Position numbers and translations under genes: made by a program. A DNA stretch of 42,583 nt from Candidatus Omnitrophota bacterium (GTDB lineage: Bacteria; Omnitrophota; Gorgyraeia; 2-01-FULL-45-10; JBDRSA01). Shown here piece by piece: positions 3 to 37,616 of this stretch. The notes below the pieces were generated by a model. The model had not been told where the DNA came from. It searched no databases and was given only the letters and a program-made list of their open reading frames with translations. The stretch covers positions 1 through 42,583 of the forward strand of contig JBDRSA010000025.1 of assembly GCA_043825275.1 (NCBI GenBank), read 5' to 3'. Positions within the stretch are counted from its first letter, which is position 1; each line of letters starts with the position of its first letter.

Positions 3-1400
3 CTGCAGCTTGCCCGGGCGTTCCACGACAAGAGATTTTTTGAGAACTCCATGCTTGAGTCGAAAAAAGTACTTGAGGCCGAGCCGGAGAATAGCGGCGC
101 GCTGCTGATCTTAGGGGCTTCCTATTTGTCGATGGGGCAGACGAAAGAGGCGCGCGCGCAATTCGAGAAGATGGTCAGGCTCGATCCCGAAAACGCCTGG
201 GGAAATATCTATCTCGCGAAGATAGACCTCGACGAAGGGGAGGCCGAACGTTGCATTACGCGGGCGCGGAATTTTCTCGCGGGCGATCCCGATCAGCATC
301 TGCTCAGGAATATTCTCGGTACCGCGTACGCGAGAAAGAAAGATTATGACGAGGCTGAAAAAATATTCAAGAAGATCATGCGGGAGAACCCCGAATTTAC
401 CGTCGCGCGAATAAACCTGATCCAGCTCTATTATCGATCGGACCGCAGCGGCGAAGCGGTCGAAGCGGCAAAAGCGTTTTTAGAGGAACAGCCTGATTCT
501 CCCGAGGCGCGCTTTATTCTGGCGGTAAGCTATCGAAAGGACGGAAAGCTTGAGGACGCGCTGCGTGAACTCGAGGCGCTGATCGAGGCGCGGACATACA
601 ATGCCGCGGTTTTACTCGAAGCCGCGGAAACCTACCGCGGTATGGGAGACAATGAAAAAACGGAAGAATATTACAATCTGACGATCGCCGCTGAGCCGAG
701 GCTGATCAGGCCGTATGTCGGACTGGCCACGCTGTACGAAGAGATGGGCAACGAGAAAGCGGCGATGACGCAGTATGAAGTGCTCCTGCAGTTAACGAAC
801 CGGCCGCCATCGATCGTCTACAACAATCTCGCCGCTTTATACGCGAAACACCGGGAAAAACTGCGGGAAGCGCTGGATATCGCAAAACAGGCGGTTTCGC
901 TGTCGCCCGAAGACGGGCTGGTGCTCGATACGCTCGGCTGGCTTTATTATCTGAACGGTTTATACGATCAGGCGATCGAGACCCTTGAACAGGCAAAGCG
1001 GTTAGAGTCGGACCATCCCGCCGCATATTATCATCTCGGCATTGTGCAGTATGAGATAGGTGATCTCGCGAATGCGGCTCAGAATCTCGGACGGGCGATA
1101 AGCCGCGTGTCAGCCGAATTCCCCGAAGCGAATAACGCCGAGAGGATAAAAGCCGCCGTTGTGTTTGAACAGCAGGGGATGCGCGGTGAAGCGCTCGGCG
1201 AGCTTAAGGCGATCCTCGGGGACGAGCCCGAGAACGCTGTCGTGCTTCTCGCGATGGCAAAATTATACGATACCATGGGGATGAAGGAAGACGCGATCTT
1301 CTACTATGAAAAGGCGCTTATGGCCAGGCCGTCGTTAACAAAGGCCCGTGTCCGGCTCGATGAGATCTATCGGGAGCTTGGGGGGAGAAAGGCGGAGTAG
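3..1400 (+). CDS. TPR-repeat protein, probably 5'-truncated by the window edge
   Basis: The ORF track gives 51-1400. The frame stays open back to nt 3 (LQLARAFHDKRFFENS precedes the first ATG). Many 34-aa-like helical-pair repeats are present, e.g. GLVLDTLGWLYYLNGLYDQAIETLEQA and AAYYHLGIVQYEIGDLANAAQNL. Confidence 0.8.
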   Translation: MQLARAFHDKRFFENSMLESKKVLEAEPENSGALLILGASYLSMGQTKEARAQFEKMVRLDPENAWGNIYLAKIDLDEGEAERCITRARNFLAGDPDQHLLRNILGTAYARKKDYDEAEKIFKKIMRENPEFTVARINLIQLYYRSDRSGEAVEAAKAFLEEQPDSPEARFILAVSYRKDGKLEDALRELEALIEARTYNAAVLLEAAETYRGMGDNEKTEEYYNLTIAAEPRLIRPYVGLATLYEEMGNEKAAMTQYEVLLQLTNRPPSIVYNNLAALYAKHREKLREALDIAKQAVSLSPEDGLVLDTLGWLYYLNGLYDQAIETLEQAKRLESDHPAAYYHLGIVQYEIGDLANAAQNLGRAISRVSAEFPEANNAERIKAAVVFEQQGMRGEALGELKAILGDEPENAVVLLAMAKLYDTMGMKEDAIFYYEKALMARPSLTKARVRLDEIYRELGGRKAE

Positions 1401-1832: not shown

Positions 1833-4800
1833 ATGGGGCAAGGGCAGATACAGAAGAGAAATTCTATCTTTATGAAGGCCGTATCGTGGATACTGGTCTT
1901 CACCTTCCTTTTTTCAAACTCCCTATTTGCCGAAGTTCTCACCGAACGTACCCACACGCTCGTTCCTTTCTACGCGACATCCGACAAAAAAGATATTGAA
2001 GAGGTCTCAGACGGCGTCAGGTGGTCCCCCGCCGCCGGCGAAACGCTTCGCGATAGAAGCCAGCGTCTCCGGGAAGATTTTAATACGGCTATAGCCGCGG
2101 TGGCCGCGAGAAAACTAGAGAAAAGTCTCGGAACCCAGGACGACTCTGATCCGGTCGGCAAAGACGAAGCGCTTGATGATCTTAGATACAAGCTTGATCT
2201 CGCGCGGAGGATTGACGGGAATTCGCCTGTTCGAGTGGCGGCTCTTAATAATATCAGCAGTAGATTAGCCCATAATATCAATACTGGCGCACCTCTCCAG
2301 GACAGCTCCTCCGGAGATCTTCTCCGGGGCGCGATCGACAAAGCGATCGAAGATTCAAAAAATGCGAGCCGAGACACTGCTGCTCCTCTTTTTAAAACCA
2401 GCAAACCAGGAAACCAGCAAACCTATCAACCGATTTTTCGCCGCTCGCCGAGCGGAGAGGGCATAGCGGATAGCGCAAAGGGCAAAGCGGATAGTGTTCA
2501 GCGCCAGTCGCCTACAAGCGCGGCTTCTGGTATGCCGGCGCGCGCGAAAACGGGGTATGTCACCGTGAATTTGTCTTCTTCAGCCGATCCCAAGGAGAAG
2601 GGATATTGGGGGAATATGTCACTCATCCAAAGGTTAAGGGCGATACCGAATGCTCTTTTGCACGAGGGGCTCCATGCGGCCGCGGACCTGTTCAGGGGGG
2701 AGATCGATCTTAAAAAAGGCCGCTACATACATAAAGCTCCAAACGCTTCACTGCACGATATATTTATAACCCTCGCGGCGCCCGTGGGAGGGATTCTCAT
2801 ACCGGCTTTTGCTCTCTGGAAAAGCGCCAAAGATATTATGGCCGCGGGGTATCCGGCCGGGTCATTGCTCTACTTTTCCGTATTAGTATTCACTACCTAT
2901 ATCGTAGGGAATTACGCGAAAAATTTCATTATAGCAGGGCACAAAGGTATCGTATCGGGACGGCAAAACATTTATGCGCTCCGCCCCGGCGCGGCATTCG
3001 CGATAGGCGGCTTCTATGCTGTTACAACGGCGGTAGTCAGCGGTGTAGCCATCTATAAACTGCTTCATGAGTGGCCCGCGCTTTTGATCGGGATGATGCT
3101 CGTATTAACAACGTTCGAGATCGATTTTATCGTGAGCGGATTTTATAATCTATTTTCGCACACCATTACGGCGGATGGTCCGCGCGCGAGGAACAAGCTG
3201 CGTATTCGCCGTTACGCGAAAGAAGCCAGGGAGATCTATCTCAATGTAGATAGATCCTTTGTCGATATGATCGAAGCCAGAGGAGAGACGTTCCACGGCA
3301 GAGCAGGGGATATCCTGAACTCAATATATACTGCTGAGGATGATGAAACGATCTATGGAATGTTTGCCGAGCGCTTTACCGGCGCGGAAGAGATGGAACA
3401 GGTAAAGCGTTTCGTTGTTTTTGCGCGCGCCTGGGAGACAAACCCCAACGCCCGGAGATTGAACGAGCTGCTCGGCCGTTTTACGGCGATCGAGCTCCTC
3501 TACAAAATTCTTAATGAAGAAAATGGCGAGATACTCGAGCAGAAGATAACCGGCAGCAGAAACCCGCATATGGGCGAAGATCAGAAACCCTACTATGATC
3601 TGGCGTGCGGCTTTATTCCCTTGTTCTGTTTTCAAAAGCTTTTGCGGGATCGTGAGTATGTTTTTGTGGACAATAATCCATTCGAAGTCGCGCATCTTGA
3701 TGAGATGAAAAGACTTTTGAGGATCCCCGATAATGTAAAAATAAGAGAGAGCGAAATATCCGGCATGGATGACGTCGCCCCGGAAAGCCTCGGCACGCTC
3801 CGCCTCGGCAGCCTGGGAGGGGAAGTCGATATCGACAGCCTGCCATACGAACGTTTTGCGGGGTGGATGGCGCCCGGCGGCCAGATCATCGTGGAGTATT
3901 TTGCGGCGGAAACGCGCGGCCTCAGTAAAAATATCGAGATAGTCGACCGGCTGCGAAGCGTGATCGGCGAGGGACGGCAAAACGAATGGAGTTATACCCG
4001 CGGCTATTATGACGCTGACGATGAATTCCATGAATTCGTAGCGGGCCCGATAACCGATGAGCTCGCTTTCAGCACCGTGCATATCTTTACCAGATCTCCC
4101 GAGGCCGGCCCGCCTGCCGTATTGCCCGACGGGCCGCGTCATACCGCGCCTGATACCCCCCGCAGATCACCGAGCGCGGATACGCATGACGAATCGCGCC
4201 AGGCGCCGAGCGTAGTACATCAGCGGATATTCGAAGAAGAGCTTGTCTGGCTCATACAACACGATACCCCGGGATCGAATAAAAAAATAGAACGAACAGA
4301 AGAAATCAGGCAGCAGCGTATAAGGCGGTATCGGCCGGTATTTGATTTTCTTATGGATACGGCGCGTCTCTCAATACAGGACCTGAGAAGATACCGCGAA
4401 CTATTTAGATCAGACCCGGATATCAAATGGGACTTCCTCACCGGAAACCCGTCAGAGGTCATAGAGGTAGATGGAGTTCGCTACCCCAAGCTCGGCATAC
4501 AACCAAAAAAGATCAGGCAGGAATTGGTGCTTCTTATATTAAGCATCCCCGACAACCTCTACCCAACATGGGATTATCTCACCGGAGACCCGCCAGAGAC
4601 CATAGAGATAGATGGAATTCGCTACCCCAAGCTCGGTATGGCACCCGAAAGGATCAGAGGAGCTCCGCGAATTCTTTTGGCAAATGTCCGCAGCAGCCTC
4701 TATCCGACCTGGGCATTCCTGGTGAACCAGGCACGCATGAATAGGGGGCGAATAAGCCAAAGAGTGCTCATGTATTCGCTCGATGGCAAGAGAAGAACTC

Positions 4801-7800
4801 CCTGTTCAGGCACGAGGATGAGGGTGGCGTATTTTACTATCCACGGGATACGATATCGGGAAAGGCCGAGCATACTTACCGCTTCTCGGTTAGAGCTGCG
4901 AAATGAATACCATATTGACATAAATGACTTAGAGAAGTTTTGGCGTGATATTTGGATGCCGAGAGAAGATATGCTGCATGATATCCAAAACGCCGTAGCG
5001 TCAGGTATCCCGGGAGACCAGGTTGACACCAAGGCGCTTTCAGACGCCTTCAGGACTTTGAGGGTCCTGTCGGACGATCATCTCTATTACACAGGCCAGA
5101 GAGACCCTTTGAGCGCGCATATTACATCTACTATCGCGCCGTATTTAGAGCATATTCAGGATTCGCAACACCGAGAACAGGCGCGTACGTTCCTTGGGAA
5201 CCTTCAGGAGCTTCCGACGCATGTGCAGCCTGAAACGGCTGTCGGTGACCCCCGCCGATCTCCGAGCGCCGACAAAAGCGACCCGCGCGTCTACGGTGAG
5301 CGGGGTGCGGAGTCGGTTGCGCACATTGTAAGTTACAGGCCGCAAGAGGTTGCCTCACCCGAAGTCATGTTTATTTCGGGGGCCTACACTTGCACCGGCA
5401 TAGCGGTCTTCGACCCAAAAACCGGCCGCTATATCGGATTTCATGAATTCAATTTTAGAAGCCGGGATGTTAGCAGGATCGTAGAAGAACTGAACAGACG
5501 CTCAGTCGATATATCGACCGCTCGTTTTCTCTTTTTCGGTAATAGCCCAGGGAAGAACGAGATAACCACCTTAAAGGAAAAGAGCCTGAAAAAGGACGGA
5601 TCCTTAAACGAAGAAATGTTCAGGGAAGCGCGTCAGGCATATCTCCGCGAAATCGCCAGGAGCCGAGCGGCAATACTCAGATGCCTTGCCGAAAAAGGGG
5701 TTACCGAAGATCGGGTCACCATGCTTATGACCGATCTTGACGATCCGAACGCCGAAGGCATGAATCACGAGGCTGTTGTCGACGCGGCAACAGGAATGAT
5801 CCTGGTGTACCGCAATGAGACTGAACCCAATACGAGGTTCGGAGAAAAAGATAGTATTAAGCATCCTCCCGAAGTCGTTACGCTTGATGAGTCGGTATCG
5901 TTCGATGCTGCCGCAAGGGACGCCGGCATTGCCGATCTTGAGCGGATCATTAATCTGTACCTGGCGAAGATCAGCGTCTTAAACAAGAATCATGATGACG
6001 ATGGTCATGAAACACCGCGCGGTCCTTCGACAGGCTCAGGACGAGAGTCACCGAGCGGGGGGCGAAAAAATCTTGACGAGGTGTACCTGACAGACGCAAG
6101 ATCCCGAATCGACCGCTATCTCGAAGTCGCAAAATCGGCATGTGCCGATCAGGAAGAGGGCGAATGGCTGCTTCCAGAATATGTTGTATCCAATGAAGCG
6201 TATCCGACAGTGATGCCGCATCTTGAAAGGGCGCTTCAAGAGGGGAAGATCAAGCAGGGAGGGATATATGCCGGCGTTGGGTTTGAGCAAAATTTATCTT
6301 TTATCGGCGCCCTTAAGCCTGCGCGGGCGGTTATTATTGAAAGAAATCATTCTATAACCAAAGTTATCTTACCTGTTTTTCTTGAGTATATATCGAGATT
6401 CTCGAGCAGGGAAGCGCTTATTGATGAGCTTATGAGGGAATGGAACGGCCGGGTGCGGCGAGATCTCTGGACGATCGCGCGAGAGTCTCTTCCCGAAGAA
6501 CTGCGGCACCGTGCCTGGCAGATGTGGGGGGCGGATAGCGACTGCGCGGCGTATATACAAAGATTGATCGATCCGGCCACCTTTCTTCTCTGGCAGATGC
6601 CGGGCTGTTGGCTTTCGAATGATAGCTCCTTCGAGACCGTAAAAACTATGTGGCTTGAAGGAAAACTTTCGGCTGTTTCGGGGAACTGGGAAGGCGAAAC
6701 GCCGAAGAAGGTCGCTGAGCTTGTTGGTGAGCCGGCTGACTATATGTATCTATCGAATATTTTTCGTTTTAACGCAAAGAATAATCCGGACCTCTTCCCA
6801 AAGATCGCCTCGGACCTCTCGAATAACTTGCGTGTGCTTGCCCGTACGGGTGATCCGGTCATTTTGGAAGTAGGCAATAGCGGCAGAAACGATATTTTAG
6901 AAAGACCGCTCAGTTCAAACTTTCGGGTTAGAACGCCGGACGGGGTCGAACACGACATTTCACAAGCATGGCATGATTCTCGGCGCTCTGAAAGGCCGGT
7001 CATCGTTCGGCGTCTCAGTGTTTCGTTTTATGATTTCTTTGCCGATGTCGAAAAGGACGAAGCCGCCAAGGCGCGGACACCCGCATACGGCGCGAATGGC
7101 GAACCCTTCTATTTTTCTGAATTTATCGCGATGCATTCTCTCCTCGGCAGCATTGGAAACATCTGTATCTACGCGCCGGAGAGAAGTTCTCTTGAGGACG
7201 ACCCTGTTTCTTTGGATATTCTCTATGACCTCAGGAGCGCTTTTGACAGCAAACGATCGATCGTCCCTTTAAGCGTTACCGGCATGATGAAGTCTCATAT
7301 CGCGCGCCATTTACGGAAAGCCCAAAGGAGCGCGCTCCCCGAACACCGTGGCGTTTACGAGATGTTTATTGAGAGGATGGAGCGAGAGGGGATCATTGCG
7401 CGTGTGCCGGAAGCGGCGCCGGATTACCGCGATTCTTTAGATTCCAGGCGCGCCTCGCCGACGGCGGACGATGAAGCGTCAAGAAAGCCGTCAGCGGGTA
7501 AGCCCGAGCTTCTTCCCGCGATGTTCGGCATCTTTGCCGGCAACTACCGATCGGTGATGAGCGATGAAGAGCTTGAGAACGCTGATCTTTTTACAAGAAT
7601 GCGGCTGGTAAATGAAATGCTGCGCGATATCGGCGCGGAGTATGTCATAACGCCGCGCGCAAGGCTCGGGTTTCATCTTTTGACGTCACTTGCAGACAAT
7701 CCGATTCTTAAAGGTTTCCGGGCGAATCTCGAAACCGCTATTACCGATATCCGGCCGGAACAGACCAAAGAAGATGTTTCCCGCAAGCTTGCTTCGAGCA

Positions 7801-10800
7801 TGTCGAGATCACCCGATCTCAGCGAACAGGGTTTCGGGGCCCTATTCGTTGAGATCGCCCTGGGCATTATGCCGAGGCTTACCGGCCAGCGGGTCGCTTG
7901 GGGTATATTTTCGGGTCGGCAAGAACTTCTTTTCGCCAACACCCCGGAAGAAATATTGTGGCGGGATCTTTATCGCGCGGCGAGATTCCAGGTGTTCGGC
8001 AACAGTTTACAGGACCCGGAGATTCTCTATGACTTTATGCGGCCGCAGTGGGAAGCGCTTGAGAAGAAGTCACAGGATCCGAACCTGCCGCTTGAATTGA
8101 GCCCGGGGTATCTCTATATCGGCAGAGAGCAAGGCCTGTTCGAAGCGGCCGCAGCCGGAGAGGTAGGTCCGGAACATAACGACAAGATCGAACTTGCGAG
8201 ACTCGGCCACATTTGGGCCAATCCATTCGGTCGGGGAATGCGTTCTGAAGATCCGGCGGTATATGTTCTTCCGGCCGAAAGGTTTAATGAGCTCGCTCGG
8301 CAAGAAAAAGCGAGCATAAAGATCGTCAAAGTCGATTTGGGTAAGAGCAAAAGACATCCGCATCCTTATCTGCGGATCGCGGGTAATTTAGCTATCGACG
8401 AGTTTGTCGAGATCTGGGTGTCGCAAGATACGTATGATCGTTGCCGGGAGATGATGCGATCCGGCGGAGCGAACGAGCGTCTTGCGCGGCTTATGGATGC
8501 GGGGACGATCAAGGCAATCCCCGGCTTCCGCCACGAAAGTCTCGGGACCGGTGATGACACGAGGCTCGCCGGGAGAGTTGCCATTGGCAGCTACATGGAA
8601 GAACGCGGGCTCTTTTATAATATTCCGCTCTTCAGAGAAGCGGCGTCAATGCGGCATTCACCCACCGCGGACACGCTCGAAACGATAGAGCGCACGACAA
8701 AAGTTCTTATAGGCGGACAGCCCGAAGATATGCGGGGACTTACCGTTGCTGTGCCGGATAATCTCAAAGAAAGGATCATCGCGGCTGCCGGGAGTCTCAA
8801 GCATTTTGATCCTCTCTATTTTTCTCATGTGTTGCATCATGAGCCCGGTCTTACCGGGATCTCTACGCCGATCGATCATCTCTTTGTTAGGGCGGCAGCG
8901 GCATATTCATTGAGCGCGGTGATCCTTACCTCGCCGGATCCTCCGGCGCTCTACCGGCATTTTTACGCTGTTGTCGAAAGCGTCATGGGTACGGTACGAA
9001 ACGGCGGAGAGTGGATCGGGCGGCTGCAGACAGCAGATGCTCACGATGTCCTGCTGCGCCCACCGTTCGAAAGCCTCGGAGAGTTTAAGCGGACCGTCGA
9101 TCATGACGATATCGAGCTCGGCATCCAACATTACCCGCATCCGTCTACGTGGGAGACTCGTCAGACCTACGGCCGCGATTCATTCGTAACGGGCATGGGG
9201 ATCGAAGAGCTCAAGAATGGCGCCGAGAGTGTTTTCAACAGAAGGATATTTTTATCGATCTATGAAGACCGGGAAAAGGAGACGGTATGGGATTTTGAAG
9301 ATGAGGAGCATGCCAGATTCATCGAGCTCTTGGAGAGGATCGGCATTATCGGCGGCAACGGGATCGTGGCGGTCGTCAAAGGCGACAATAACGAAGGGCC
9401 GGCGCATCTCCTTCCGCTTCTGTGGTACTGGGGACATACGCACGGCAGGCTCCCCTTTGGCGAAGGGAATATATTTAATCCGACCGAACAGGATAAAAGG
9501 ATGGTTCAGGAGATCGGCGCTTTCTACCGGGCGCTTCCCTGGCACCATGCCGCCAGGAGATCCGGCTACTCTCTGACCGATGATCCTGTACGAAGATCAC
9601 CGTCGGCCGAGCGCGGCAAGGCTATCTGGAAAGCGATGAAGGGCAATGAAACGCGGGCAGGCGATAGTGCTGTTGAACCGTTCGTCGTCGATTGGGAGGC
9701 GCGCCCTGGAAGAGTGGTCCGCCGCCCTTCGACAGGCTCAGGGCGAGGCTCGCCGAGCGGGAGCGATGAGAAACCGACTGCCGGGGAACCCGGCAAAAAT
9801 AGAACCGTGCCCATTTCTGATATTTGTGATGGCAGCGGGACTATTGAAGAACTCCAAAATCTCGCGGAAGGTCTTCTCGCGGAGCCAAAAAATCTCGGCA
9901 CTGTCATAGAAGAATTAACAGAAACATACATTTCGCGTGACCCCATGAGCAGGGCAAAGATGAGGGCATTTTTATATGTTTTGGCGGAAACATACGGTAC
10001 CTTTAGGCAAAAGAAGAGCGTTCGGATTCCAAGCGATTATATCAAAACCTTAATACCTTTGGCTGAAGATCTCCTGAAAAAGGATATAGAAAGCGATCGT
10101 CGCGTAGTTGTGGCAGCGAACGAGGATATGACCGCGCTTCGGAAATTATATAAAGAGCTCAAACCCCGAAATCGGTTAAATTACTATTCAATAATGAAAT
10201 CCGCCATTGAGAACGGTTTCGACCTCAGCATACAGAGAGTGATAGGCGATAGAGCCATTGTTGACAAAGAGATTATCGACGATGGTAAGGGCGGCTATAA
10301 CGAAAAAGAAAAGTGGATAGCAATGAATGAGGATATAAGGGTACCCGAAAGCCAGGCAAGAGATTTTGTCGACAAGTTGAAACGCTTCGCCGAAGATACA
10401 TCAAATAAGTTATTCCATAGATTTAGAGCTTACATGATACTTTACGCCGTATTTTTAGAGGAGACAGAAGTTGACGAAAAGACCGGCGAGACCAGACTCG
10501 TCAGGCATGTTGAAACAGCGTTAGCCCCTGACAATGATAGAGCGCGCGCATACTTCGAGAAAGCCCTTGGGCCGGAAGGCGTTCAGGCAAAGGCGATACA
10601 AGAGCTTCTTAATGAAACCCTAAGGAGTGAGCTGAGAAATATATTGTCTGAAAGAATCCGGCGCCGGATAGAGGAAAGAGGCCTTGCCCTGACCATCGAT
10701 GAGTATATAGACAGAATGCTTTCTCCGAAGACCCTGAATGACTATGTGCAAAGCGTGCCGGAATCTTTGCGGAATAAGCGGATAACCGTAAAAAGCGGGG

Positions 10801-12896: not shown

Positions 12897-12900
12897 ATAG

Positions 12901-12930
12901 CTGTCAGGTTCCAGTTGTCAGTTGCCAGTA
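12901..12930. repeat. 30-nt heptamer cassette between G1 and G2
   Basis: ctgtcag gttccag ttgtcag ttgccag ta, starting 5 nt after the G1 stop (12894-12896). Confidence 0.7.
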
Positions 12931-12960
12931 AAAGAAAAGAAGAAAAAAGGAAAAAGGAAA

Positions 12961-15900
12961 ATGATGAATAAGGAACAGACGGTAATAAACAGAACGATGA
13001 GAAGAATACAAAGGATCGTGTCGATGATACTGATCCCCGCATTCCTTTTGTCCAATTCCGTCTTCGCGGAGGTGCTTATAGAACGGGCCTCTGTCGCTAC
13101 CGCTGTTCCGTATTATATCTCGGCGCTTTTAGATGAACACAAGGACGATCTTAAGGATCTGGCGAGAGGCGTTACCCCGGTCATGGACCGGAACTTTGTG
13201 GATAGAAAAGAGGATTTCGAAAAGGCGTGGGACCTGATGTGCGCCGAACGCCTGGCGCTGAAGATCGTATCGAAGATCAAACAGGACGAAGACAGGGGCT
13301 CGATGGCCGACGCCGAGCGCTGGCTCATACGGCAGATAGAGGATCGGGCGGATGAATACGGCATGTCCGCCGAGCGGAAAGCGTTTCTCGTTGAGGCGAT
13401 CACGCGGGAGTTCCGCGGTGAAGGCGCCGATGAGGATGTGATCGACGCGAAGGAAATCTTTGAGACGAGACAGGTGGAAGATGGGGGGCAGGCCTCGAAG
13501 GGCATAGAGCATAGCGCAGATGCTAGTCACCAGGCACTAGGTATCAGTCGCCAGGAAGCAGATGACAGAGAACAGAAGACAGAGGACAGAGGACGGGATT
13601 ATCGCGAGTCGCCTACAGGCGGGAAAAGTCGCCAGACGCCAGTTGCCAGTTTCCAGGAAAAGCAAAAGATAAATAGAGAACGTCGAACGACGCACGAGAG
13701 CGAAGCGTCCGCCTCGGCGAACCGAAGGCGAGACGGGGAGCGAAGCCTCCCCGGAGGGGACGCACAACGAGACGGCCGTAAACCGTACACCGTAAACCGT
13801 ACACCGGAAGCACGCCATTCCCCCTCCGAAGACTCCGATGATCCCGCCGCGGAAGAACCGGATGAAGAGATGGGTGATTTCCTTGATAGTCTTGAAGTAC
13901 CTTTGCCGCAAGACCAAGATTTCCCCATCCGGATACTGTCGTCGAGTTTTATTAAAGAATGTGAATTGATCAGGGAATTCGGCTTAAAGGAAGAGACCGG
14001 CGCGTATATTGCGCTTTATAGATATAACGGTGAACCGATCGGCGACTTGAAAACCGGTGGAGAGTTCATTTTAAAAGCTTCGATCAGGCCCATGGCCGGA
14101 ATGAACGCGCTGATAGGGCCGACCGCGGGATTTCATTCAAAAATCGGGCCGTCTGAGAACGTACCGGATCTTTACGGCGTCATCGATTTCGGGATCGAAG
14201 GCCGCACTGTCAGCGGGCACAAACTCTATGAGACCGCTATCCTGAAAGAGTTTGTCGAAGGGCCGTCATTGCGCGAGTATGTGATGGCGATGAAGACCGA
14301 AAGAAGTGATTCGGCAACTGAACAGCAGTTTCTCGATCTTGTCACGAGTGTTTTGAGGGATTACCGGGATACGTACAGGATCAACGGTTGGATGAACGGT
14401 GATCTCGACTCAAGGGATATTGTGGTGGCCCGGGCGAGATCAGGCAGCGGCTCGCGAAACGTCTTCATTGATAACGGTACCGCGACCGAATATGGATCCG
14501 ACGATCCTGCCGCAATAGCGAGGAAGCGGGTTGTTAAGGCGCTCTACTGTAGTTTTAAGCGATTTATGAGGCTCTCTGAAAGAGAGCCCGCCGAATGGTG
14601 TCTACCGCGGGATGACGGGTATTCGCTTACCATTGCGCTCCTTGATTGCCTTGGGCTGATCGCCGATACCCCGGTTGATTTCCAGGAGAGCGGCCAGCAC
14701 TATATCGATGTTGTGGAAAGCAGGGTTCTCAGCGATATCCATTCTCCGCAGCTGATAGACCGACTCAAGAGTGTTGCGGCAATGAGAGAGCATGTCTTTA
14801 CGAGGATCGTCCGCGCGCATGAGAATAACGGACGGCTCGAGGAGCTGGCGCATGTGTTAAACCATTACAGAAAACGGTTTGAAGACGAGGATGTTTTCAA
14901 CGCGCTTCTCAGGGATGTCGAGCGCATCGCCCGGGGCGAGCCGTCACTGGGTCCCGACCGGGGCTTAGAGGGTTTTGGTGGCGCGATTGAGCGAAAGTCG
15001 CCAAGCGCGGATATTAGTTCAGAGTTCATAGTTCATAGTTCACAGATAACAGATAGCAAAGAGCAAGAATTAGAAGATGACCAGGCAGACGACCGTACAC
15101 CGAAAACCGAACACCGTGAACCGAAAGAACCCCGCCGCAGCTCCCCCAGCGGGGATGATAAAACAGAAGGGCCCGAACGGGAAGACTCTATCGACGCGAT
15201 ACGGGACGCCGATACGCTCTCAAATTATGTCGACGGCCTGATAGCGGATATTAACGATACACAAAAAGACGCTCAAATATCGTTCTCCGATATACTCGCC
15301 TCTCCCGAAGGATACAACGAAAGCTTTTTTGAGCCGCTATACGAAATTCTATTCAGAAAACTCTCGCGCGACTTTTCCGGCTCCGAGGAGTTTGTCGAAT
15401 ACTGCGGAAGGGCGATCGGGCAAAAAGGCGCTGATATATTGCGCGTTGAAATGAACGGAGAGAATTTACCGCTTATCGGGCGTATCGGCGGAATACGGCG
15501 GAATAATAACACAAAGAAGGCATCTATAGAATTGTACGGCTTTTTATTCTTCCTGCTGGCTCGCGAGCCAAAGAAGTATCTTGCCCGGGTATACGACGAG
15601 TTCATGAAGACCCGCCCCGCTGAAGATATAGCCCTCGGCAGAAGGGGTATCTCGTATCACGATAGAGGCGACAGCGTTGTCCATTTTTACACAAAAGGCG
15701 TCATCTTTGAAGGTATCGTAAAACCTGTTTATAAGAAATCGCTTATGCCGATCTATGAGCATGAAAAGACTGTTCTTGAGGACAGGACGGGTTCGGATAG
15801 CGCGAAGAAGATCGGGAGGGCGTTACAGTATTGGCAGACACAAGGGTATATGCCGGGAAATGAGCGCCTTCTCGAGAGGGTAAAGAATTTCTGGAAATCC

Positions 15901-18900
15901 ACGACCGTTGTGGAGCTCGACATGAGGACGCCACTTCTTTTTTCAGACCCCGATCATAATGTTGTCAGGAGCTTCCACGCGGGGAGAACAAGGCGTGTTT
16001 TGTTCTTTTCGAAGGCCTATCTCGACAGCTTAAGTATAGACAGCGAAGCCGACATGAAGGAACTCGCTTTCTGGCTGAGCTTTGGTCAGCGGTTTATCGA
16101 CATGAAAGATGAAATGGAGGCGAAGGGTTTCGATTCGAGACAGATAGAACAGGCGCGTTCGGCCCTGAGCCTGCTCTATTTCGAAGACGTATTTATTAAG
16201 TGCCAGGAAGACGCCAGTCTCATCGATCCGCTCTACATTAAAGACAGATGCAGACGTTATATGCGGCAGGACACGTTTATTAAGTATACGACCCTATTGC
16301 GGGAGACAATAGAAAAAGAGAAAGAGGCGGATGCGCTTCTAAGGCAGGCGGATAAGACGAAGGCGCAGGAACATTACGCGCTCGCATGGTTTCTATACGG
16401 CAAACTCCTTTATAAGTATGATGGGATGGGTCTGCACTCGGAAGCCGAAAAGGCATATCAGAATATGACATCGGCGACAAGGGAATGCCAGCTCCATAAC
16501 TGGGGCCTTCTTCCATACAGGGTCTACATGTTCGATACATTTACCGCGCTGCGTTTCGGAAAGTGGCCGGAATTTGTTGAAGGGCTCGAGACATTCTTGA
16601 CAGGAAAGGGGTATAAGAGGCGCATGTGGAGAGAGGAAGCCAATTTGTTGAGAAACTGTCTGTGCGGCCATGAAGGTATTTACAGGGATTTTCGGGAGGT
16701 CATCGAGCGCGTTATACATAGCCAGATGGACGCGGCGGATACGGAAGTCCTATCCGAGATAACTCCGCACGCCGAAAGGGCATTCGATCTTTTGAAGAGG
16801 TTCTACGAGGATGGAGGGCCGGAGCGCTGTCTGGAGATCGACACACTGCCGACTTTACCCGAAGGAAATAACACCGAACCAAAACCGGACGGCTCTTCAG
16901 ATAAAAAGCGCCGCTCGCCGAGCGGGGAGGAAGATAGCCGACAGTCCACAGTCCGTAGTCCGAAGATAGAAAAACAGGATCCTCGTGAGTCGCCTACAGG
17001 CGGGGATGATAGGTCAGGGTTCATAGTTCATAGTTCAAAGTTGCCGACAGAAAAACAGGATCTTCGTGACTCGCCAACAGGCGGGAAAAGTCGCCAGACG
17101 CCAGTTGCCAGTTTCCAGAAAAAGCAAAAGATAAATAGAGAACAACGAACGACGAACGAGAGCGAAGCGAAGCGAAGCCTCCCCGGAGGGGACGCACAAC
17201 GAGACGACCGTACACCGGAACGCCGCTCCCCCAGCGCTGACCGGCATGACTCCGCAGATGCGGTCGAGGCGGCCTCGGCGGCCCCGGACTATCGAGAGTG
17301 GCTTGACCGGAAGGTGCCTTCCGAGTGGCGCGACAGACTCACTCCGAAACAGCGGGAGTTTCTTACCGTTTATTACCAAACCGATAAGGTCCTCGAAACA
17401 AAAAAGATGTCGCTCTTTACGAAAGCGCTCCTTTCCCTGGGAGTCGCCGGCGCGCTCGGATTCCCGGTCTTCGTCGTCCCTTCAGCGAGTAGCGCGCTGA
17501 CCGTCGCGGGTCTCATCTTCTTCATGTTCGTATTTATCCCGACCCACGAAGCCGGTCATTACCTCGCGGCCCGCGCGGTAAACCGGGCGTCTTTGAGAAA
17601 AACCGGCCGCCCCGTATTCAGCTCGATACGCTACGCATGGGAGGGAACGTTCCCGCAGGTGCGGATCGAATTCGCCGATGAGTTCCGCCAACCGAAGGGA
17701 TTTATCGATGTCATCGAATGGGGGCCGACCGTGTCGCTCATCACGTCGGCTGCCGCCTTCGCGATAACCGGCCTTTCGATATTCTTCGGGTGGGATATCG
17801 TCAGCTACTTCTCCTCCCCCACGGCGTATCTAACATTCGCGATGTTCCTTTTTGAGAGCTTCTGGCGTTTCGGATACAGCAACGACGGATCGCTGAGCGC
17901 CCGCACGAATAAGATCTCGCGCGCCTTTAAAAAAGCGAAGCGCTCATACTCGTTCCTCGGTGAAGATCCCATCCACTGGGGTATTGAGGCGGAGGACTTC
18001 CTTATTGATGCCGGAGACGGGATCTACTGGGCGGTCCCCGAAGAGTCATGGAACGAGACGGACCTTCTGGCCGATCGGGTCAGGGTGCGGGCGCGCGAGA
18101 GCCTTCTCAGGAACAGGGACGTACTCTTCGGCATGGGGCAGCGGCGCCCGGACGGCGCGGCCATTCCCGACGAACCGCCGGAGAATGTCTCGCACATCCC
18201 CTTCCTCTCTGACACGGTACGGATGGATTCGATACGGTATCCGATGCCGTTCGAATTGTCGGGAGAACTGGTAAAGCCCGATCAGGGGGACCGTGAAGGA
18301 AAAAGCTCCTTCATCGTCCGCTCTGTTTTTAACCCTTCGGGGAGAAGGTACGCGCTCTACAAGGTAACGGATTTTCCGAAGGAGCTCCTGCATCGGTCCA
18401 AAGGCCCTGAGCCATCCGCAGGCGAAAGCGCGCGGCGATCGCCGAGCGGGGAGGAAATTAGTCCGGAGTCCGGAGCCCGGAGTCGGGAGAAAAAAGAAGA
18501 TGGATATCGGGCAAACGACGAGATACTAGATACTAGATACAAGATACAAAATCCCCGTACCTCCCCCAGCGCGGCCATTCCTCCCGACGCTGATCCGGCA
18601 TTCTTTGAAAGCAGCTCGCCGCCGTACTGGATGATGGGGAATGATCTGATAGCGAAAGAAACGAAGCGCTTAGCCGCCAAGCTTCTGGATCAGGCATCAG
18701 CCGAACGTGCGGGGCGCCCATGGAGTTATGAGGAGATCCAGAAGCTCCTTCAGACGCATCCGGAGATTACCACCAAGCTTCAGTTCGAGAAAGCAGAGTA
18801 TTACCATATTCCTGAGATTGCCGCGTACGCGAACCTTGCGCTTGATGAAGAGTCGCGTGCTTTTTACGATGAGGCCGAGCGCATCTTCAAAAAGATTGTT

Positions 18901-21900
18901 CATGCGCGGTCAGAAGAAGAGATCCTCTCCCTGGCGCGACACCTCAAGGAGATAAATCCGCGGATCGCGGTCGTTATTTTGAAATGGCTGGCAAGCACCA
19001 CTGAAATGCATGGGTCAAAGTATGCCGCTGAAGAGCGTGCCGCCCGGCGGTTCCTACGGCGGTTCGTCAATCTCTTCTTCGGTGAGTTGGGCGGCAGAGA
19101 AGCTATCAATGATTATCTGGTGATGGCTGCCAATATGGTCCAGAAAGCGCGTCGAGAGCGGGATCTTATGCCGGATGAAGTGGCGGTCGTTCCGGTATTG
19201 ACCGGTGGAGGTACGCTGAGGGATTTTGCCAACACAAGACTCTTCTTCTCCGTACACCGCGTGCGGCCGCTTTTGTTTACCAGGGTAATGGCACAGGCAT
19301 ACGGCGTTGAGGAAGTTGATGGACGCCGACGATTTACCAGGGAGGGTGCCGAAGCCGTTTGTGAATACCTGAAACTACAGGAGATCATCGATGACAGAAT
19401 TCGGCATATCGTCTTTTTGGATGTCGGCCAGCGAGGTACGATCAGAGAGCTCCTGACGCCGATCCTCGACAAATTGTCGATCACGTCCGACCTTCCGGTG
19501 CTCTATCACGGCAAATACGCCGAAGCAGATCGGCACCTGGCGCACGGCCTGAACGATGAGCCGGCATGGCGGCCGCGCGATGAAGAGCTTTTGTGGATGG
19601 CCTATATCCTCGATGATGGATTCGAAAAGAGTATCGATGTTTCTAACTTCGTCTTAGAAGAAAAGCCACGCGGGCGCCTCCCGTTCTTTAAGCTTACAAA
19701 CAGTCTGTGGTTCTATCGATTGGTGCAGGAGAGAACGCAGATCGCCGCATCGGGATTGCCGGTATATTCAAGAAATCTGTACGATACCTGGGATTATTAT
19801 AGAGACGAGGATGAGAATGATCCCGCGTTCCGTCACTCGCCGAGCGGGGACGACGACGCAGAGCGCAAAGCGCAAAGCCTCCGGCCCTTACGGGCCTTAG
19901 GCCCGGAGGGCGCAGAGCAAAACCTTGAAGCGCGCGAAAGCGCTGTTTCCCCTAGTGCTGCGCCCGACATGGAAAAAATAAACAAAGCGGTAAAATTTGC
20001 GATCGATATCCTGAAGAGAGATGAAGAAAAGAGAGCGCTGCGCAATACCTGCAAGCAGCACGCCCCACTTCTGTGTTATCTCTTGAATCGTATGGGTATT
20101 GATGCGGAGGTCTCCCTGGTTTATTACGACAACTTTATGTTAAGAGAGGTCCACTACTGCGTGAAGATCCCGGGCCAAACACCGATCTATGTTGACTCGT
20201 TGCCTGAGGCGCATACGCACAGGATCTCACGCGATCCCGGCGTAGGCGTTATTCTCAAACCGGGAGATCCCGACTATGAGTTATATGTCGACGGCGAGAA
20301 ATTAGCGGGCCAGTATAGCGGTGGTCTTGCGAATCTGACACCAGGCGCCCGGATGCTGTTCGGCGTGAAAGAGGCGGAGAAAGAGATCGACGCGTTCATT
20401 GCGCGACTTACCGGAAGATCTTCCGGCTCCGCAGCGGGCGAGGACGAACAACCGGCAGACGACCGTACCCCGGAAACCATACACCGTAAACCGGAAGAAC
20501 CACGCCGTTCTTCGAGCGGGAGCGATGCCGCAAGGCCGGATCGTGATAAAGCGCTTCCGGATGTCCCGGATGACCTTCTCGACCGGCTGCCTGAACGCGA
20601 AGCGCTTATTCAGATAATCCGGATGGTGCTCGACGGAAGAGCCAGGGGGCCAAGAAAATTATACGGGGATCAGGATCGCAGATTTAATGTGTTGCGCCTC
20701 TGGACATTAGAGGGGGCCGCATATCAGGATATCATAGGACAAGTAGATTTTACGTACGCGGCAGCTCGGGAACATAAGAGGCGGGCGATCATTAGTCTCG
20801 CGGATTGGTTGGCTCCTTATGGCGTAACCCGTCAAGAGATCAAGGAAGTATTGAAAAGTATCCAAAAACCACAATTCTTAACAATGAAACTTGGTGATTA
20901 TCGCGCCTGGCATGTCCATTATAGCAATTGGGTCGTCGGCGAGGCGGAGGCGCCCGATCAGATACAATTCAATAAAAACGATAAAGAAGCCTGGGGACAG
21001 ATACTCGCTTTGCTCCGAGAACTCCATATAGTAGAGCCTACGTTCGACGAAGGGACGATCATCCCGCGCAAAGATGAGCACGGTTACATCATCGAGATCA
21101 GAGATCGGAATGGCGAGGCCCGGCATCAATATCTGACATGCTTTATTACGGGCAAGATGCTGAATCCGGTTTCATCCTTCGGTATTGTTATGCGGGGTTC
21201 AAGACAGAGCGAATTACGTCTTTTATTGGCAGGGTACGGCCCCGCCGATCTTCTCCCGGCGCTCGGCGATGTTAAAAAGTCTGTGTTACATTTAAAAGGA
21301 GGTGATTATCAGAGAGTTAGGCTGCTGAAAACCCCTCAAGGCAGGTCTATATATGTTACATTGTCAAAACGGTACACCTCTGATCACATAAAACCCGAGA
21401 TCTCAGGTGAAAGCCTTGCCGATTCCGCAAAAACCCGTATTACACTTTATGATCCTGATACTAACGAACCTGTATCGGACGTGATCGTGTGGACAGACAG
21501 GAAAAATTGGGAATGGGAAGATCAGAGATCAGACAAATATATTGATCCATCAGAAAATGGATATATACAGTGGTCCGCCGGGCAATGGAGAAGGTATCTT
21601 GCCGGAAGCAGGAGGACTCCTCCCAGACAGGATAAGATCGACACATATCCTACACCAATACAAAGGTCACACAGAGCAACGTCGAGAGTCGTTCGTATGT
21701 TAGAAAATGAAATAGATCTTGGGTATGAAGATGAATGTCCTTATGAACAGGTAAAGCGGTGCGCGTTGAAGATACCGGGCGATGATAGGCGTTTCATGGG
21801 ATTGTGGGCCCCCGAAGTCGATCCGGCGACAACTCCTCCGCTGGTTGTCCTCAGGCTCACAGGTAAAACATTGATCAATACCCTTACTATTCCCGCGGAA

Positions 21901-24900
21901 TACGAGATCGTTACACACGAGACTCCGGTGGAAACTGCTGAAAAAGAACCTGCCCAAGAGACCGTTTTAGAAGGTCCCGGAAAAGAGGTGCCTCCGCCAG
22001 TGGGAAGGATTCTCAAAGAGGAAGCTCCGGAAGAAGCTGCCGGTGAAGAAAAAAGCGCTCAAGAGGCCGACGCAGAGGCCCCTGGAACAGCCGGTGACGA
22101 TCTCATACATGTATCTATCGGAAACGCGATCAGATTCGACGAAGATGAGATCGAGCAAGCGCGTAACTTGACAAGAAGGGTATCTTCAAAAAAACGTTTG
22201 GCTGCTCGAAGTTTATCTGCTCAGGAACAGGATATAGTTGATATGGTCTTGCAGGGCGCAAGCGCGTCAGGGTTGACAGATCTTTATCTTGCGGCCTGGT
22301 CGGATCTACTAAAGAGCGCCATGATAAAGCTCGTGACGACAGACCTTCGCGAGCTGCCCCAGGCGTACGCGAAATACCGGAAGCTTTTTAGCGGATCAGC
22401 CGGTGCCGTGGGTAAGAAAAAACCGAAAAAGAAAACCGGCAGGAAAAAGCGCCATTCCCCGAGCGGGGAGGAAGACAGTTCGGAGTTCGGAGTCGGGAGT
22501 TCGGAGACAAAAGTGCGCCTGTCACCAGAGCACCAGAGCGCCAGCAACCAGAAAGCGAGTCGCGAATCACCCAGCGGGAAAAACAGTTCAAGGTTCAAGG
22601 TTCAAGGTTCAGAGAGCGCAGAGAGCATAGAAGAGAAAACCGGCGAACCGGTGATCCGTCGCCTGCATCGCGCTTCGGATCATTCCCTGATTCGTCGCCT
22701 TCAACACGTCTCGAATCACCCCCGGACTTTTCGTGGGGGGATCTTTCGTGGGGCTAACCGGCGAACCGGCGAACTGGCAAACCGGAAAGCCGGTCAACCG
22801 AAACGCCGCTCCCCCAGCGGGGAAAGACTGATCATCCCCGATGAGTATCGATCGGTGGGGAGTGAAAAATTCAGGGAGATATTCGGAAAAGAATTCGGCG
22901 GTCTCGCCCCCGACGCCGAACAGCTGGCGAGCCTGCTCGACCGCTTGAATCCGGCCGTTTTCGATATTCATCGCTCCGTTTGCGACAACAATGGGAGAGA
23001 GATATACCCGTATTGGTGTCATCCGATGTCCAGGGTAGTAGCGCAGGTTCTTAAAGATCGAGGATTCGATGTTGCTTCTGGCTCTTCAATCGTCGATGCG
23101 CAGGAGTTTGGATTTAATGTAGTGGTTGTCCACCATATAATAATACTTCAACTCTCGCAGGGGAACGTTCTCCTTGATTACACCGCCGACCAGTATTATA
23201 AAGACGCTGACGGCAACTGGCTCCACATCGAGCCGGTGATCATGCCTTGCGCCGAAGCCGAACGGGGAGCATTTTATGGAAGTGTGGAGAAAGGCGCAGC
23301 GATGAGATTAGATGAGAGAGACAGAAAGCTGTATGAAGCGATAAATGATGCTCTCAGCGGGAGCGAGGATAGAGCAAGAGGCGAAACTCCACGCGAGTCG
23401 CCGAGCGGGGAGAAAAGCGGTTCAGGGTTCAATGTTCAAAGTTCAAAGTTGCCGACTGCCGGGCACAAACCGTTAACCGAATACCGTAAACCGGTGCGTG
23501 AATCCCCCAGCGGGGAAGAGAATAGACTGTCTTCCAGAAGAAAGGGGACACGGAAAGAAGAACTGGCGCAGCGAAGAGTAAAACCTCTTTCAGATGTGGT
23601 TATCTCGAATATTGATAAGGGGCCTGTGGTTGCCGAAAGTGAGCTCAGAGAGTTGGTGGAGAGTACAGAAAAATTCGGCGGGGATTGGCGGAATCGAATT
23701 GTCACCGCCATGGCAGACCCGGAATCGGTAACATTGCTTGCGCGGCGTCACGGAAGAATCGTCGGGTTCATAACAGGGGTTGAGCCGGATGAGAGCGACC
23801 GGGAGCTTATCGGAAAACGTAACGCGCATTACTTGCTTGGTATTGGCGTGCGGCCTGAAGAGCAGGATCAAAGGATCGCGACGGCGCTCTTTGCGCGGTA
23901 TACTAAGACGCTCAAGAGGCTGGGGAAATACGATTCTGTAGCGCTTCACACAAGAGATGATCGGATTTTTCGAATAATTGCCCGCTATCAGGACAGAGTC
24001 ATCCGCACGCGCCGGAAACATACAGATCGTGGTATGCAGATCGTTCTCTCGCTTGGAAGCGACGGTCCGGAGAAAGCCAAGTTGCAAGAAAGAAAAGCCC
24101 CGCTTCGCCGCAGGTCGCCGAGCGCGGAGGGGGATAGTCCGGAGTTGGTAGTCCGTAGCCCTGATCGAGAGTTTCTTGTAGATAAGAGAATCTCGGCTGA
24201 GAAAGAGATCTATGAGAGGTTCAGAAGAGGTGATAACAGTTTTATCGCGTTTTTCGATTTTGATCACTCAAGGCACTATTTTACGACTTTCGGTGAGATG
24301 AAAATGAATAGAATCTTAACGGGCGGGTTTTTGCGTGCGCTTGAATTTCTGGAAGGAGAAGGAGTACTAGTATGGCCACCTCTTGGATTTGGCTGTGAGG
24401 AGATCGGGCTCTTATTCCCGGAATCTATGGAAAAAGAGGAAGTGCTTTCACTGCTCGTCTCTGCGAAGGAAGAGATCGAGAAAACCACCTTTCCACTTAA
24501 AGGGACCGCCGTGCTTCAAAAGATCCAGAAGACTGTACCCCTTTTGGGCAAAGCGAGAAGTGAATCGAATCAAAGAGTGCAGCAGGCGTGGCTTGAGAAA
24601 GAGATGAGAGACTATTTCTCGCAAATGAAGCGATGGAAGAATAAATACGGTCGGAGGACTATTGTCGATCTCGATTTAGAGCCCCCAGTAGTCTATAAAA
24701 AAATAAGCCGCAATTCCCCCAGCGCGGAAAACGGTCCAAGGTCCAACGTCCAAGGTCCAAGGCCGCCGGAAGATAGCGGAGCGCCGAAAACCGTAGACCG
24801 TAAACCGGAACGCGGATCGCCTACAGGCGATGACAACAAGATACTAGATACTAGATACCAGATACGAGATCCTCGCCGCTCATTAAACGCTGACATTGAC

Positions 24901-25577: not shown

Positions 25578-25619
25578 TTGTCACTGACAACTGTCAACTG
25601 ACAACCGGCAACTAACAAG
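25578..25619. repeat. Six-unit heptamer array directly after the G2 stop
   Basis: ttgtcac tgacaac tgtcaac tgacaac cggcaac taacaag, starting 3 nt after the stop at 25573-25575. Confidence 0.75.
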
Positions 25620-33258: not shown

Positions 33259-33305
33259 GGTTATTTGGTTTGTTGCGGTATAAGTTATCGAGCTAACTCC
33301 TGGAC

Positions 33306-37576: not shown

Positions 37577-37616
37577 GGCAGGCACGAGAGGGGAAGAAGT
37601 GGCTGAATCTTTTTTC

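Follow-up and report, generated by a model that had tools for sequence, protein, structure and literature searches.

Giant multi-enzyme proteins, a hallmark of the uncultured phylum Omnitrophota, have been described as 'Archaeovorins' (West-Roberts et al. 2023, bioRxiv 10.1101/2023.11.21.568195), and a 'multi-enzyme metabolic' class with signal peptide and transmembrane topology has also been reported (bioRxiv 10.64898/2026.06.07.730766). Whether the giant proteins of Omnitrophota act as one chain or are cut, and where, is open in this literature. In this study, we analyzed a 42,583-nt stretch of DNA from a Candidatus Omnitrophota bacterium (assembly GCA_043825275.1, contig JBDRSA010000025.1), hereafter the window. 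It contains two tandem giant open reading frames (ORFs) on the plus strand, G1 (1833–12896, 3687 aa, database entry P0003) and G2 (12961–25575, 4204 aa from the ATG at 12961, database entry P0001), which are punctuated by 10 and 22 copies, respectively, of a peptide motif with the consensus R-x-S-P-[ST]-[GA]-[DEG]. The longest G2 ORF starts from a TTG at 12922 and has 4217 aa, and residue numbers of G2 are counted from 12922.

G1 and G2 share several features with Archaeovorins: named relatives that are all from Omnitrophota, a signal peptide with internal transmembrane helices, strings of apparently unrelated enzyme modules, protease-like pieces, sugar-metabolism enzymes in their relatives, and the open question of cleavage. 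Archaeovorins reach tens of thousands of residues and contain many unrelated enzyme domains, including glycolytic ones, in addition to HEAT/TPR scaffolds; G1 and G2 are approximately ten times smaller than the proteins defined as giant in this literature. Inter-domain linkers are not discussed in either of the two preprints, and neither describes a motif at junctions or cleavage sites or a C-terminal module common to the proteins. The word 'linker' occurs in neither text, and 'motif' occurs once in one of them (in a reference title) and not at all in the other. The cleavage passages of 10.1101/2023.11.21.568195 name no site, and linkers built from heptamers are described in neither text.

MARTX toxins are released as modules by cutting at short conserved inter-domain sites (PMC2900308, PMC6315884). 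Like these toxins, G1 and G2 are very large and apparently exported, and their conserved ends flank variable, shuffled modules. The ends of MARTX toxins are glycine-rich repeats, and an embedded InsP6-activated cysteine protease cuts after Leu; neither was found in G1 or G2, and a Pfam search at E ≤ 0.5 gave no C80-like protease domain or repeat family of the MARTX type in any module. The ends of G1 and G2 are instead a signal peptide with a helical module and an alpha/beta module, their internal modules look metabolic whereas those of MARTX are toxic, and their cleavage is only hypothetical. In viral polyproteins, such as those processed by picornaviral 3C and potyviral NIa, a consensus of 5–7 residues lies in an exposed linker at every junction, and the polyprotein always encodes its own protease. 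G1 and G2 likewise have a short consensus at their junctions, but they have no common protease module, and they are cellular genes near glmS and a pyr operon. Because the defining protease domains are not present, the likeness to MARTX toxins and viral polyproteins is one of resemblance, not of membership.

The junction motif and its codon pattern

In this lineage, nearly every inter-module linker carries R-x-S-P-[ST]-[GA]-[DEG]. When hydrophobicity was scanned in windows of 31 residues, a copy was present in 18 of the 19 segments of low hydrophobicity in G1 and G2, and nearly all copies were in the lowest hydrophobicity percentiles. A sequence-only reading of the same DNA had placed the motif in low-complexity charged stretches between modules and directly ahead of the C-terminal module (C-module) in both proteins. 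This placement holds, and it agrees with module borders that were defined independently. G1 aa 256–754, which is 46% identical to aa 1175–1673 of the relative P0092, has a copy on either side, at aa 224 and 777. In the AlphaFold2 (AF2) model of the G2 C-module, the RRSLNAD copy is disordered, and the first helix begins 10 residues later. In relatives, no copy falls within the Pfam envelope of PfkB, transaldolase, or FBPase; the copies come after the N-terminal module (N-module) and before the C-module.

All 32 proposed sites hold their peptides in frame. The earlier count of 10 and 19 canonical copies was slightly generous: 24 match the consensus strictly (G1, 8; G2, 16), and five are near copies that deviate at position 6 or 7 only. 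The strict copies of G1, all on the plus strand like those of G2, are RRSPSGE (2439–2459), RRSPSAD (4161–4181, 23 aa past the end of the block homologous to P0092, and 5253–5273), RESPSGG (6042–6062), RASPTAD (7449–7469), RHSPTAD (8652–8672), RRSPSAE (9591–9611), and RSSPSGD (12075–12095), the last of which is followed by a CAGTCAC ×4 array and stands ahead of the C-module. RHSPTAD at 8652 has the most hydrophobic context of all copies and may sit inside a folded domain. The near copies of G1 are RQSPTSA (2502–2522) and RGSPSGS (9744–9764). The peptide PSTGSG stands just before the copies at 6042 and 9744.

G2 opens with RESPTGG behind its N-module (13603–13623) and the near copy RHSPSED (13813–13833), which is preceded by a CCGTAAA ×4.4 array. 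Then come RKSPSAD (14992–15012, followed by TAGTTCA ×4), RSSPSGD (15136–15156), RRSPSGE (16909–16929, identical to the DNA consensus), RESPTGG (16984–17004), RDSPTGG (17065–17085), RRSPSAD (17221–17241), and RRSPSGE (18433–18453, followed by AGTCCGG ×4.3). A second near copy, RTSPSAA (18556–18576), has AGATACT ×3.9 before it, and RHSPSGD (19831–19851) follows. Further downstream are RHSPSGE (22450–22470, followed by AGTTCGG ×4.3), the near copy RESPSGK (22561–22581, followed by GTTCAAG ×3.7), RRSPSGE (22804–22824), and RESPSGE (23392–23412 and 23497–23517). The second RESPSGE stands ahead of the GNAT module and RRSPSAE (24109–24129) behind it. The series ends with RNSPSAE (24709–24729, followed by GGTCCAA ×4.3) and RGSPTGD (24811–24831, followed by AGATACT ×4.6). 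The three copies that had been called decayed are indeed so: AVSPSAA (19942–19962), RRSSSGS (20503–20523), and RRSLNAD (24874–24894), which is immediately N-terminal of the first helix of the C-module.

The composition of the proteins predicts 0.0096 strict copies, so that the 24 observed represent an approximately 2,500-fold excess, and the maximum in 2000 shuffles was one. The five-residue core R.SP[ST] was observed 29 times versus 0.29 in shuffles. In a six-frame translation of the whole window, the strict motif was confined to the coding frames of G1 and G2, with none in other frames or on the opposite strand. As the sequence-only reading had noted, no other coding sequence contains it: the R.SP count is zero across the other 14 ORFs (4,954 aa).

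The same reading had pointed to variable codons beneath a constant peptide, which is confirmed for Ser3 (TCG 13, TCC 6, TCA 4, TCT 1) and Pro4 (CCG 12, CCC 6, CCA 3, CCT 3). To avoid circularity, copies were also sought by the DNA consensus alone (18 specified bases, at most 5 mismatches), which gave 30 matches on the plus strand and 4 on the minus strand, with 3.4 in shuffles. In the 24 matches that are in frame in G1 or G2, third codon positions account for 53 of the 74 mismatches (72%), second positions for 16, and first positions for 5, counts that are not independent events because the copies form sub-families. All six third codon positions vary, the position-2 changes are conservative (Gly/Ala, Ser/Thr, [DE]/Gly), and first positions are altered in decayed copies only. 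In G1, 7 of the 10 copies have no neighbouring heptamer array, and the motif is still kept. These codon-level tests, which cover the window's own copies, indicate that the peptide, not the DNA, has been kept by purifying selection since the copies arose.

A structure in the nucleic acid could also have been conserved. The S-P…G-[DE] part of the core (TCNCC NNNN GGNGA) could form a 5-bp mRNA hairpin that acts, for example, in processing or pausing. The sub-families TCCCC-CAGC-GGGGA and TCGCC-TACA-GGCG(A/G) are self-complementary, and the mean minimum free energy of the 33-nt segments is −8.7 kcal/mol versus −7.15 ± 0.56 kcal/mol in synonymous recodings. However, this energy excess is small and expected from a GC-rich repeat ancestry, the apparent covariation amounts to one or two ancestral events, and there is no Rfam match. 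The stem is broken in all Ala variants and in the largest sub-family (TCGCC-GAGC-GGGGA). A consistent RNA hairpin was rejected on the latter ground, and we regard selection on an RNA or DNA structure as extremely improbable. A translation-arrest motif of the SecM/RAPP type, in which Ala is critical, was dropped because position 2 of the motif is fully variable.

Heptanucleotide arrays in the linkers

The window shows periodic self-identity at lag 7 only, where 62 windows exceed the threshold, versus 0 for lags 3–6 and 9–12. Approximately 40 of the 65 rows from Tandem Repeats Finder have a period of 7 or 14 with 3–5 copies, and they are distributed among the linkers of G1 and G2, four intergenic spacers, and pyrK. 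A strong array occurs within 60 nt of 17 of the 32 motif copies, versus 3.4% of random positions. In the typical composite cassette, a CCGTAAA-type array is upstream of the motif and a GTTCATA-type array downstream; the array units include ACCGTAA, TAGTTCA, AGTCACC, AGATACT, CGGACGA, and others. The core of 21 nt likewise consists of three degenerate heptamers (e.g., CGCCGCT CGCCGAG CGGGGAG), with a lag-7 identity of 0.48 versus 0.18–0.33 at other lags and 6.67 lag-7 matches versus 4.03 ± 0.36 when these peptides are recoded synonymously. A perfect (CGCCGAG)×3 would encode RRAPSAE. The core is embedded in linker cassettes of tandem 7-nt arrays, and repeats of this type are found throughout the genome. 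The codon of Arg1 is CGN in 24 of 24 strict copies, AGR being 42% of the Arg codons in G1 and G2, and that of Ser5 is AGC in 17 of 18. Together with the lag-7 excess, these fixed codons point to a strong DNA-level legacy.

Two linker cassettes of G2 are closely similar. Cassette A (13593–13820, plus strand; heptamer arrays, core, heptamer arrays) lies between the N-module and the module at aa 305–690, and cassette B (17055–17241, plus strand) lies between the unrelated modules at aa 746–1329 and the HExxH/transmembrane module. They are 91% identical over 115 nt and 91% over a further 54 nt. A related cassette in P0002 (aa 2607–2723, a linker of approximately 110 aa) joins yet other modules. 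Such sharing gives some support to the proposal of the sequence-only reading that the motif copies are conserved joints for recombinational module exchange. The core and its cassettes would then be homology patches for in-frame module swaps between paralogous giant genes, with the peptide as a by-product that need only stay translatable. Also in favour are the HExxH module of G1, which in P0092 stands in an entirely different order of modules, and the tandem paralogues G1 and G2, which have only their ends in common. As the sole explanation, joints of this kind are contradicted by the codon-position pattern, since variation in a signal read at the DNA level would not gather at third codon positions. 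Efficient homologous recombination would require patches longer and less variable than the 21-nt core, and sufficient length and similarity are found in two cassettes only. The core is also stop-free in all three frames, so translatability alone would not fix the peptide. We consider this explanation distinctly unlikely, though recombination joints can coexist with a function of the peptide.

The arrays are not limited to the giant ORFs. In pyrK (33423–34388), six 7-nt arrays (33612–33641, 33779–33809, 33868–33899, 34073–34099, 34237–34266, and 34294–34325) are in-frame insertions that add approximately 60 residues. Their units belong to the same families as those of the G1 and G2 linkers (AGTCACC, ACCGTAA, TAGTTCA). 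They appear as gaps against the sequence of the L. lactis PyrK structure, and one splits the match to the Fe-S-binding domain. The connection of the motif with 7-nt arrays, which also enter a housekeeping enzyme in frame, suggests a route by which linkers are gained in fused proteins. The pyrB–pyrC spacer contains TTACGGT ×5 and the reverse complement ACCGTAA ×4.9 (31773–31807 and 31905–31938), an inverted pair approximately 100 nt apart upstream of pyrC. Other intergenic heptamer arrays are at 1418–1436, 12902–12961, and 25579–25618, and arrays stand directly behind the stop codons of both G1 and G2.

This insertion habit bears on another explanation, in which nothing recognizes the motif and the core is merely the surviving part of a copied heptamer cassette, selected as a charged, turn-forming, non-aggregating spacer. 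The triple-heptamer nature of the core, the cassettes of up to 91% nucleotide identity, and the fixed CGN and AGC codons of Arg1 and Ser5 are all consistent with such a hinge, as are the in-frame arrays of pyrK, for which no signalling role is conceivable, and the dispensability of the motif in most of the family. A generic spacer, however, does not need five near-invariant positions, and the adjoining heptamer-derived linker drifts freely while the core does not. The predominance of third-position mismatches also argues against a hinge, as does the persistence of the motif in array-less linkers of G1 and in the diverged paralogues of the metagenome-assembled genome (MAG) with locus tags ABIJ27_. 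On balance, a hinge seems rather unlikely.

Short tandem 7-nt arrays scattered through the genome are also known from cyanobacteria, as the STRR heptamer repeats. In Rickettsia, palindromic elements of 100–150 bp are inserted in frame into protein genes. The repeats described here are like the latter in that repetitive DNA is tolerated as in-frame insertions in surface loops of a housekeeping protein, here pyrK, but they are tandem 7-nt arrays of approximately 30 nt without terminal inverted repeats. To our knowledge, heptanucleotide elements have been described neither as translated linkers nor as the source of a selected peptide. Geobacter metallireducens has four-fold heptanucleotide elements with the unit GGACCGG inside and between genes (Aklujkar et al. 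2009, PMC2700814). The present arrays also have approximately four tandem 7-nt units at many loci, within and between genes. Unlike in G. metallireducens, the units here differ from GGACCGG and make up translated linkers and in-frame insertions, and one triple heptamer has become a selected peptide motif.

Three further observations concern the repeats themselves. The in-ORF ACCGTAA arrays alternate with ACCGTAC to give a period of 14 (13776–13806, 15092–15125, and 12157–12188); in a perfect ACCGTAA array, the reading frame would meet a TAA at every seventh codon, and the alternation is therefore suggestive of selection for an open ORF. The sequence CCTTCGACAGGCTCAGG, which encodes PSTGSG just before the two G1 copies mentioned above, lies in a repeated segment (6018–6059 and 9720–9761, 86% identity over 42 nt). 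It resembles a widespread REP-type repeat that is translated as FDKLRA/PSTSSG in many MAGs; if this resemblance holds, intergenic-type repeats may have been recruited into linkers. A different REP-like inverted repeat (…GTCATTGCGAGGAGCG…CGACGAAGCAATCTC…), unrelated to the motif, occurs in at least six intergenic spacers (1486–1580, 28995–29041, 33300–33400, 36100–36230, 37611–37686, and 41939–41972).

The protein family and candidate readers of the motif

Sequence comparison indicates that G1 and G2 are tandem paralogues and belong to a family of multi-module Omnitrophota proteins that are exported or anchored in the membrane. As read from the sequences, the family layout starts with a Sec-type signal peptide and a conserved N-module, continues with enzyme modules in a variable series, and closes with an alpha/beta module that is conserved at the C-terminus. 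G1 and G2 have only these ends in common: the signal peptide with an N-module of approximately 80 residues and a C-module of approximately 230 residues. The signal peptide (…ILVFTFLFSNSLFA/EVL) and N-module of G1 are at 1875–2117 and those of G2 at 13012–13254, both on the plus strand; the latter were placed by comparison with G1 and P0002, and all signal peptides were judged by eye. G1 aa 15–95 and G2 aa 31–111 are 38% identical in this region, and P0002 has the same N-module (aa 10–252 against G2 aa 25–238). It is conserved and helical (TLAPY…LI), lies behind the Sec-type signal peptide, and opens, together with that peptide, many of the C-module family members.

The C-module (G1, 12195–12893, by profile search; G2, 24874–25572; both plus strand) is the family-defining alpha/beta domain of approximately 225 aa, ending in …LF.[VA][AS]A, and scored 450 bits in G1 and 442 bits in G2 with profile A2. 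In an exhaustive hidden Markov model search, 86 clusters at the 50% identity level carried it, at the extreme C-terminus in 86 of 86 matches and in proteins of up to 5,568 aa. Its AF2 model for G2 is confident (predicted local distance difference test (pLDDT) score 91.4), apart from the first approximately ten residues, which contain the decayed motif copy. A fold search of the Protein Data Bank (PDB) gave no match at E < 0.1; the C-module is therefore not a recognizable protease.

Between the ends of relatives are parts that resemble phosphofructokinase, GluDH, glycine-cleavage proteins, phosphoglucomutase, aldolase, PfkB, transaldolase, and FBPase, as assigned by sequence reading and Pfam; GluDH, amylase, PfkB, transaldolase, and FBPase were detected by Pfam. 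Every named relative is a protein from a 'Candidatus Omnitrophota/Omnitrophica' MAG. The family agrees in this with the reported 'multi-enzyme' class of large Omnitrophota proteins and is grouped with them. In G1 and G2, Pfam recognized DUF7790, GHMP kinase, and GNAT only, with no HEAT repeats, and most internal modules are orphans. A PDB sequence search with the whole proteins returned a fucokinase-like GHMP stretch in G1 and nothing for G2. A transmembrane scan found internal helices in both, and the first half of G1 matched only P0092 in a protein search. G1 also contains a 90-nt direct repeat (4427–4516 and 4568–4657, 82% identity; WD[FY]LTG[ND]P…IE[VI]DG[VI]RYPKLG), a repeated small domain within the module at aa 784–1140, of which BLAST traces suggest more copies near aa 868–960.

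The motif, searched as R.SP[STA][GAS], is present in approximately 11 of the 86 family clusters, and apart from the window almost all of these are from a single Omnitrophota MAG at NCBI (ABIJ27_), which has roughly 40 copies and encodes MFH1995715, MFH1996114, MFH1996279, MFH1996713, MFH1996818, and MFH1996901. P0002 has 18 copies, including RESPTGGKSRQTPVASFQE.QKIN, which is near-identical to G2; P0073 has seven, P0031 four, P0041 and P0068 three each, and P0034 and P0011 two each. Within the ABIJ27_ MAG, at least seven diverged paralogues carry R-x-S-P-[STA]-[GAS], again at junctions of these types. The sequence-only reading had named absence from orthologues among the outcomes that would refute it, and this applies in part, since most of the family is without the motif. 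The cluster mates P0088–P0090 are near-identical and from the same population as the relatives, and thus uninformative. P0002 (5531 aa) ends just past a motif copy (RESPSGEYSPQ…*), and P0011, on the same 21,673-nt NCBI contig, begins with MNKTRESPGAGGE… and carries the C-module; the two may be one ORF broken within a linker, either by a heptamer-array frameshift or by a real split.

Wider searches gave no additional carriers. Scans of IMG/VR with either C-module found no relative, scans of GTDB genome contigs with a degenerate SPTGGKSRQTPVA pattern and with the A1 profile found 0 loci each, and a search of 5.8 billion proteins with a motif profile of 42-residue windows gave 133 candidates, none significant. 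A scan of metagenome contigs gave no match to the specific pattern and 120 single, random-looking matches to the general core pattern; the only locus with two copies in the latter (L111) was rejected as high-GC noise.

We propose that the motif would be the recognition site for one trans-acting factor of this lineage. A single reader would most simply account for a short linear motif that is under selection, confined to one lineage, and found at nearly all junctions of many diverged paralogues within a genome. The likeliest factor would be a site-specific endopeptidase that separates the modules after export, and G1 and G2 would act as polyproteins. A protease would fit a motif that is placed at junctions and is as long and as stringent as this one; it also agrees with the export signal and with the existing hypothesis of processing in the giant proteins of Omnitrophota. 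The motif is therefore put forward, tentatively, as a candidate recognition site of a trans-acting processing protease.

The sequence-only reading had instead assigned the cutting to modules embedded in the giants themselves, with HExxH or Cys-His-Asp signatures, and this assignment was not supported. The module at G1 aa 256–754 (2598–4094, plus strand) has HExxH at aa 277, three hydrophobic helices, and a soluble part downstream, and that at G2 aa 1441–1837 (17242–18432, plus strand) has HExxH at aa 1542 within hydrophobic helices. The two HExxH and transmembrane modules are not homologous, and the Pfam matches are marginal (Peptidase_M50 in the G2 module, E = 0.045; Transglut_core3, E = 0.028). 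HExxH is absent from the motif-rich ABIJ27_ relatives, and P0092 has the G1 module without the motif.

Several points weigh against a processing protease in general, in addition to the sub-family structure of the copies noted above. Part of the uniformity of the motif is common descent of copied cassettes, not function. No protease module is common to the motif-bearing proteins, in which HExxH is limited to G1 and G2, and the C-module has no protease-like fold match. Because both proteins have internal transmembrane helices, their topology is uncertain, and with it the compartment in which each linker lies. Most family members do not carry the motif, among them multi-enzyme proteins of 2,750–5,568 aa. 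Large multi-enzyme members from other lineages, including P0024 (5,568 aa), P0009, P0023, and P0026, have neither the motif nor an alternative recurrent linker motif, and P0092, with the orthologous HExxH module, has 0 copies in 1,807 aa. The fused architecture evidently works without the motif, which is a lineage-specific addition and not an architectural requirement.

The reader could also be a modifying enzyme, with Ser3 or Ser/Thr5 phosphorylated or glycosylated so as to regulate or protect the linkers. Ser3-Pro4 is invariant within low-hydrophobicity linkers, which makes it an accessible S/T-P core exposed in disordered segments; position 5 is occupied by Ser or Thr, R-x-S-P provides a context that is both basophilic and proline-directed, and a TPR protein is encoded directly upstream. 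The sequence-only reading had further pointed to a kinase-like module in G2. A module common to G2 aa 305–690 and P0002 aa 2053–2387 does contain kinase-like patterns (…LKA…, EFVxG, NGDLD, IDND), but its kinase nature could not be verified: it matches neither Pkinase nor any other kinase family in Pfam, has no PDB relative, and has an AF2 pLDDT of only 37. It is also missing from G1 and from most motif-bearing relatives. The Sec-type signal peptides make ATP-dependent phosphorylation of exported linkers less likely, since many linkers may be outside the cytoplasm, where ATP is lacking. Modification is accordingly an unlikely role for the motif.

Gene neighbourhood and significance

An ORF consisting entirely of TPR repeats (3–1400, plus strand) lies upstream of G1 and runs off the start of the contig. 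TPR domains typically bind short extended peptides, and the upstream TPR ORF is on this basis a candidate partner of the motif. The approximately 30 copies could then be multivalent short linear motifs that dock onto a repeat protein, such as this one, which would organize the modules, or several giant proteins, into an assembly. The encoded protein has at least 449 aa and is immediately upstream on the same strand, and the copies, besides being numerous and exposed, have a regular placement and are under selection. However, the proposal rests purely on gene neighbourhood, and the TPR ORF is truncated by the contig end. We judge docking to be quite improbable.

The other genes of the window encode a nagA-like amidohydrolase, glmS, a methylase, pyrB-pyrC-pyrK-pyrD-pyrF-pyrE, and subunits of a V/A-type ATPase. 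A phage origin, considered on the basis of PHROG hits, was rejected because chromosomal housekeeping genes surround the locus and a search of phage records returned glmS-like fragments only. Scans of the window for RNA families and tRNAs found nothing.

The evidence on repeats and on processing can be joined in a single scenario, in which the insertion of heptanucleotide arrays builds linkers and fuses enzyme genes, and (CGCCGAG)×3, turned into R-x-S-P-S-G-E, has been domesticated as a lineage-specific cleavage code that acts after export. We regard the scenario as speculative and unlikely. The motif is limited to a narrow lineage, this contig and essentially one other MAG. It is also one of the rare peptide motifs whose origin at the DNA level can be read directly. 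Its presence at 18 of 19 junctions provides concrete candidate cut sites, which can be used in looking for semi-specific termini in metaproteomes and as split points for structure prediction. If the cleavage-code reading is true, G1 and G2 would be true cellular polyproteins with a sequence-defined processing site.

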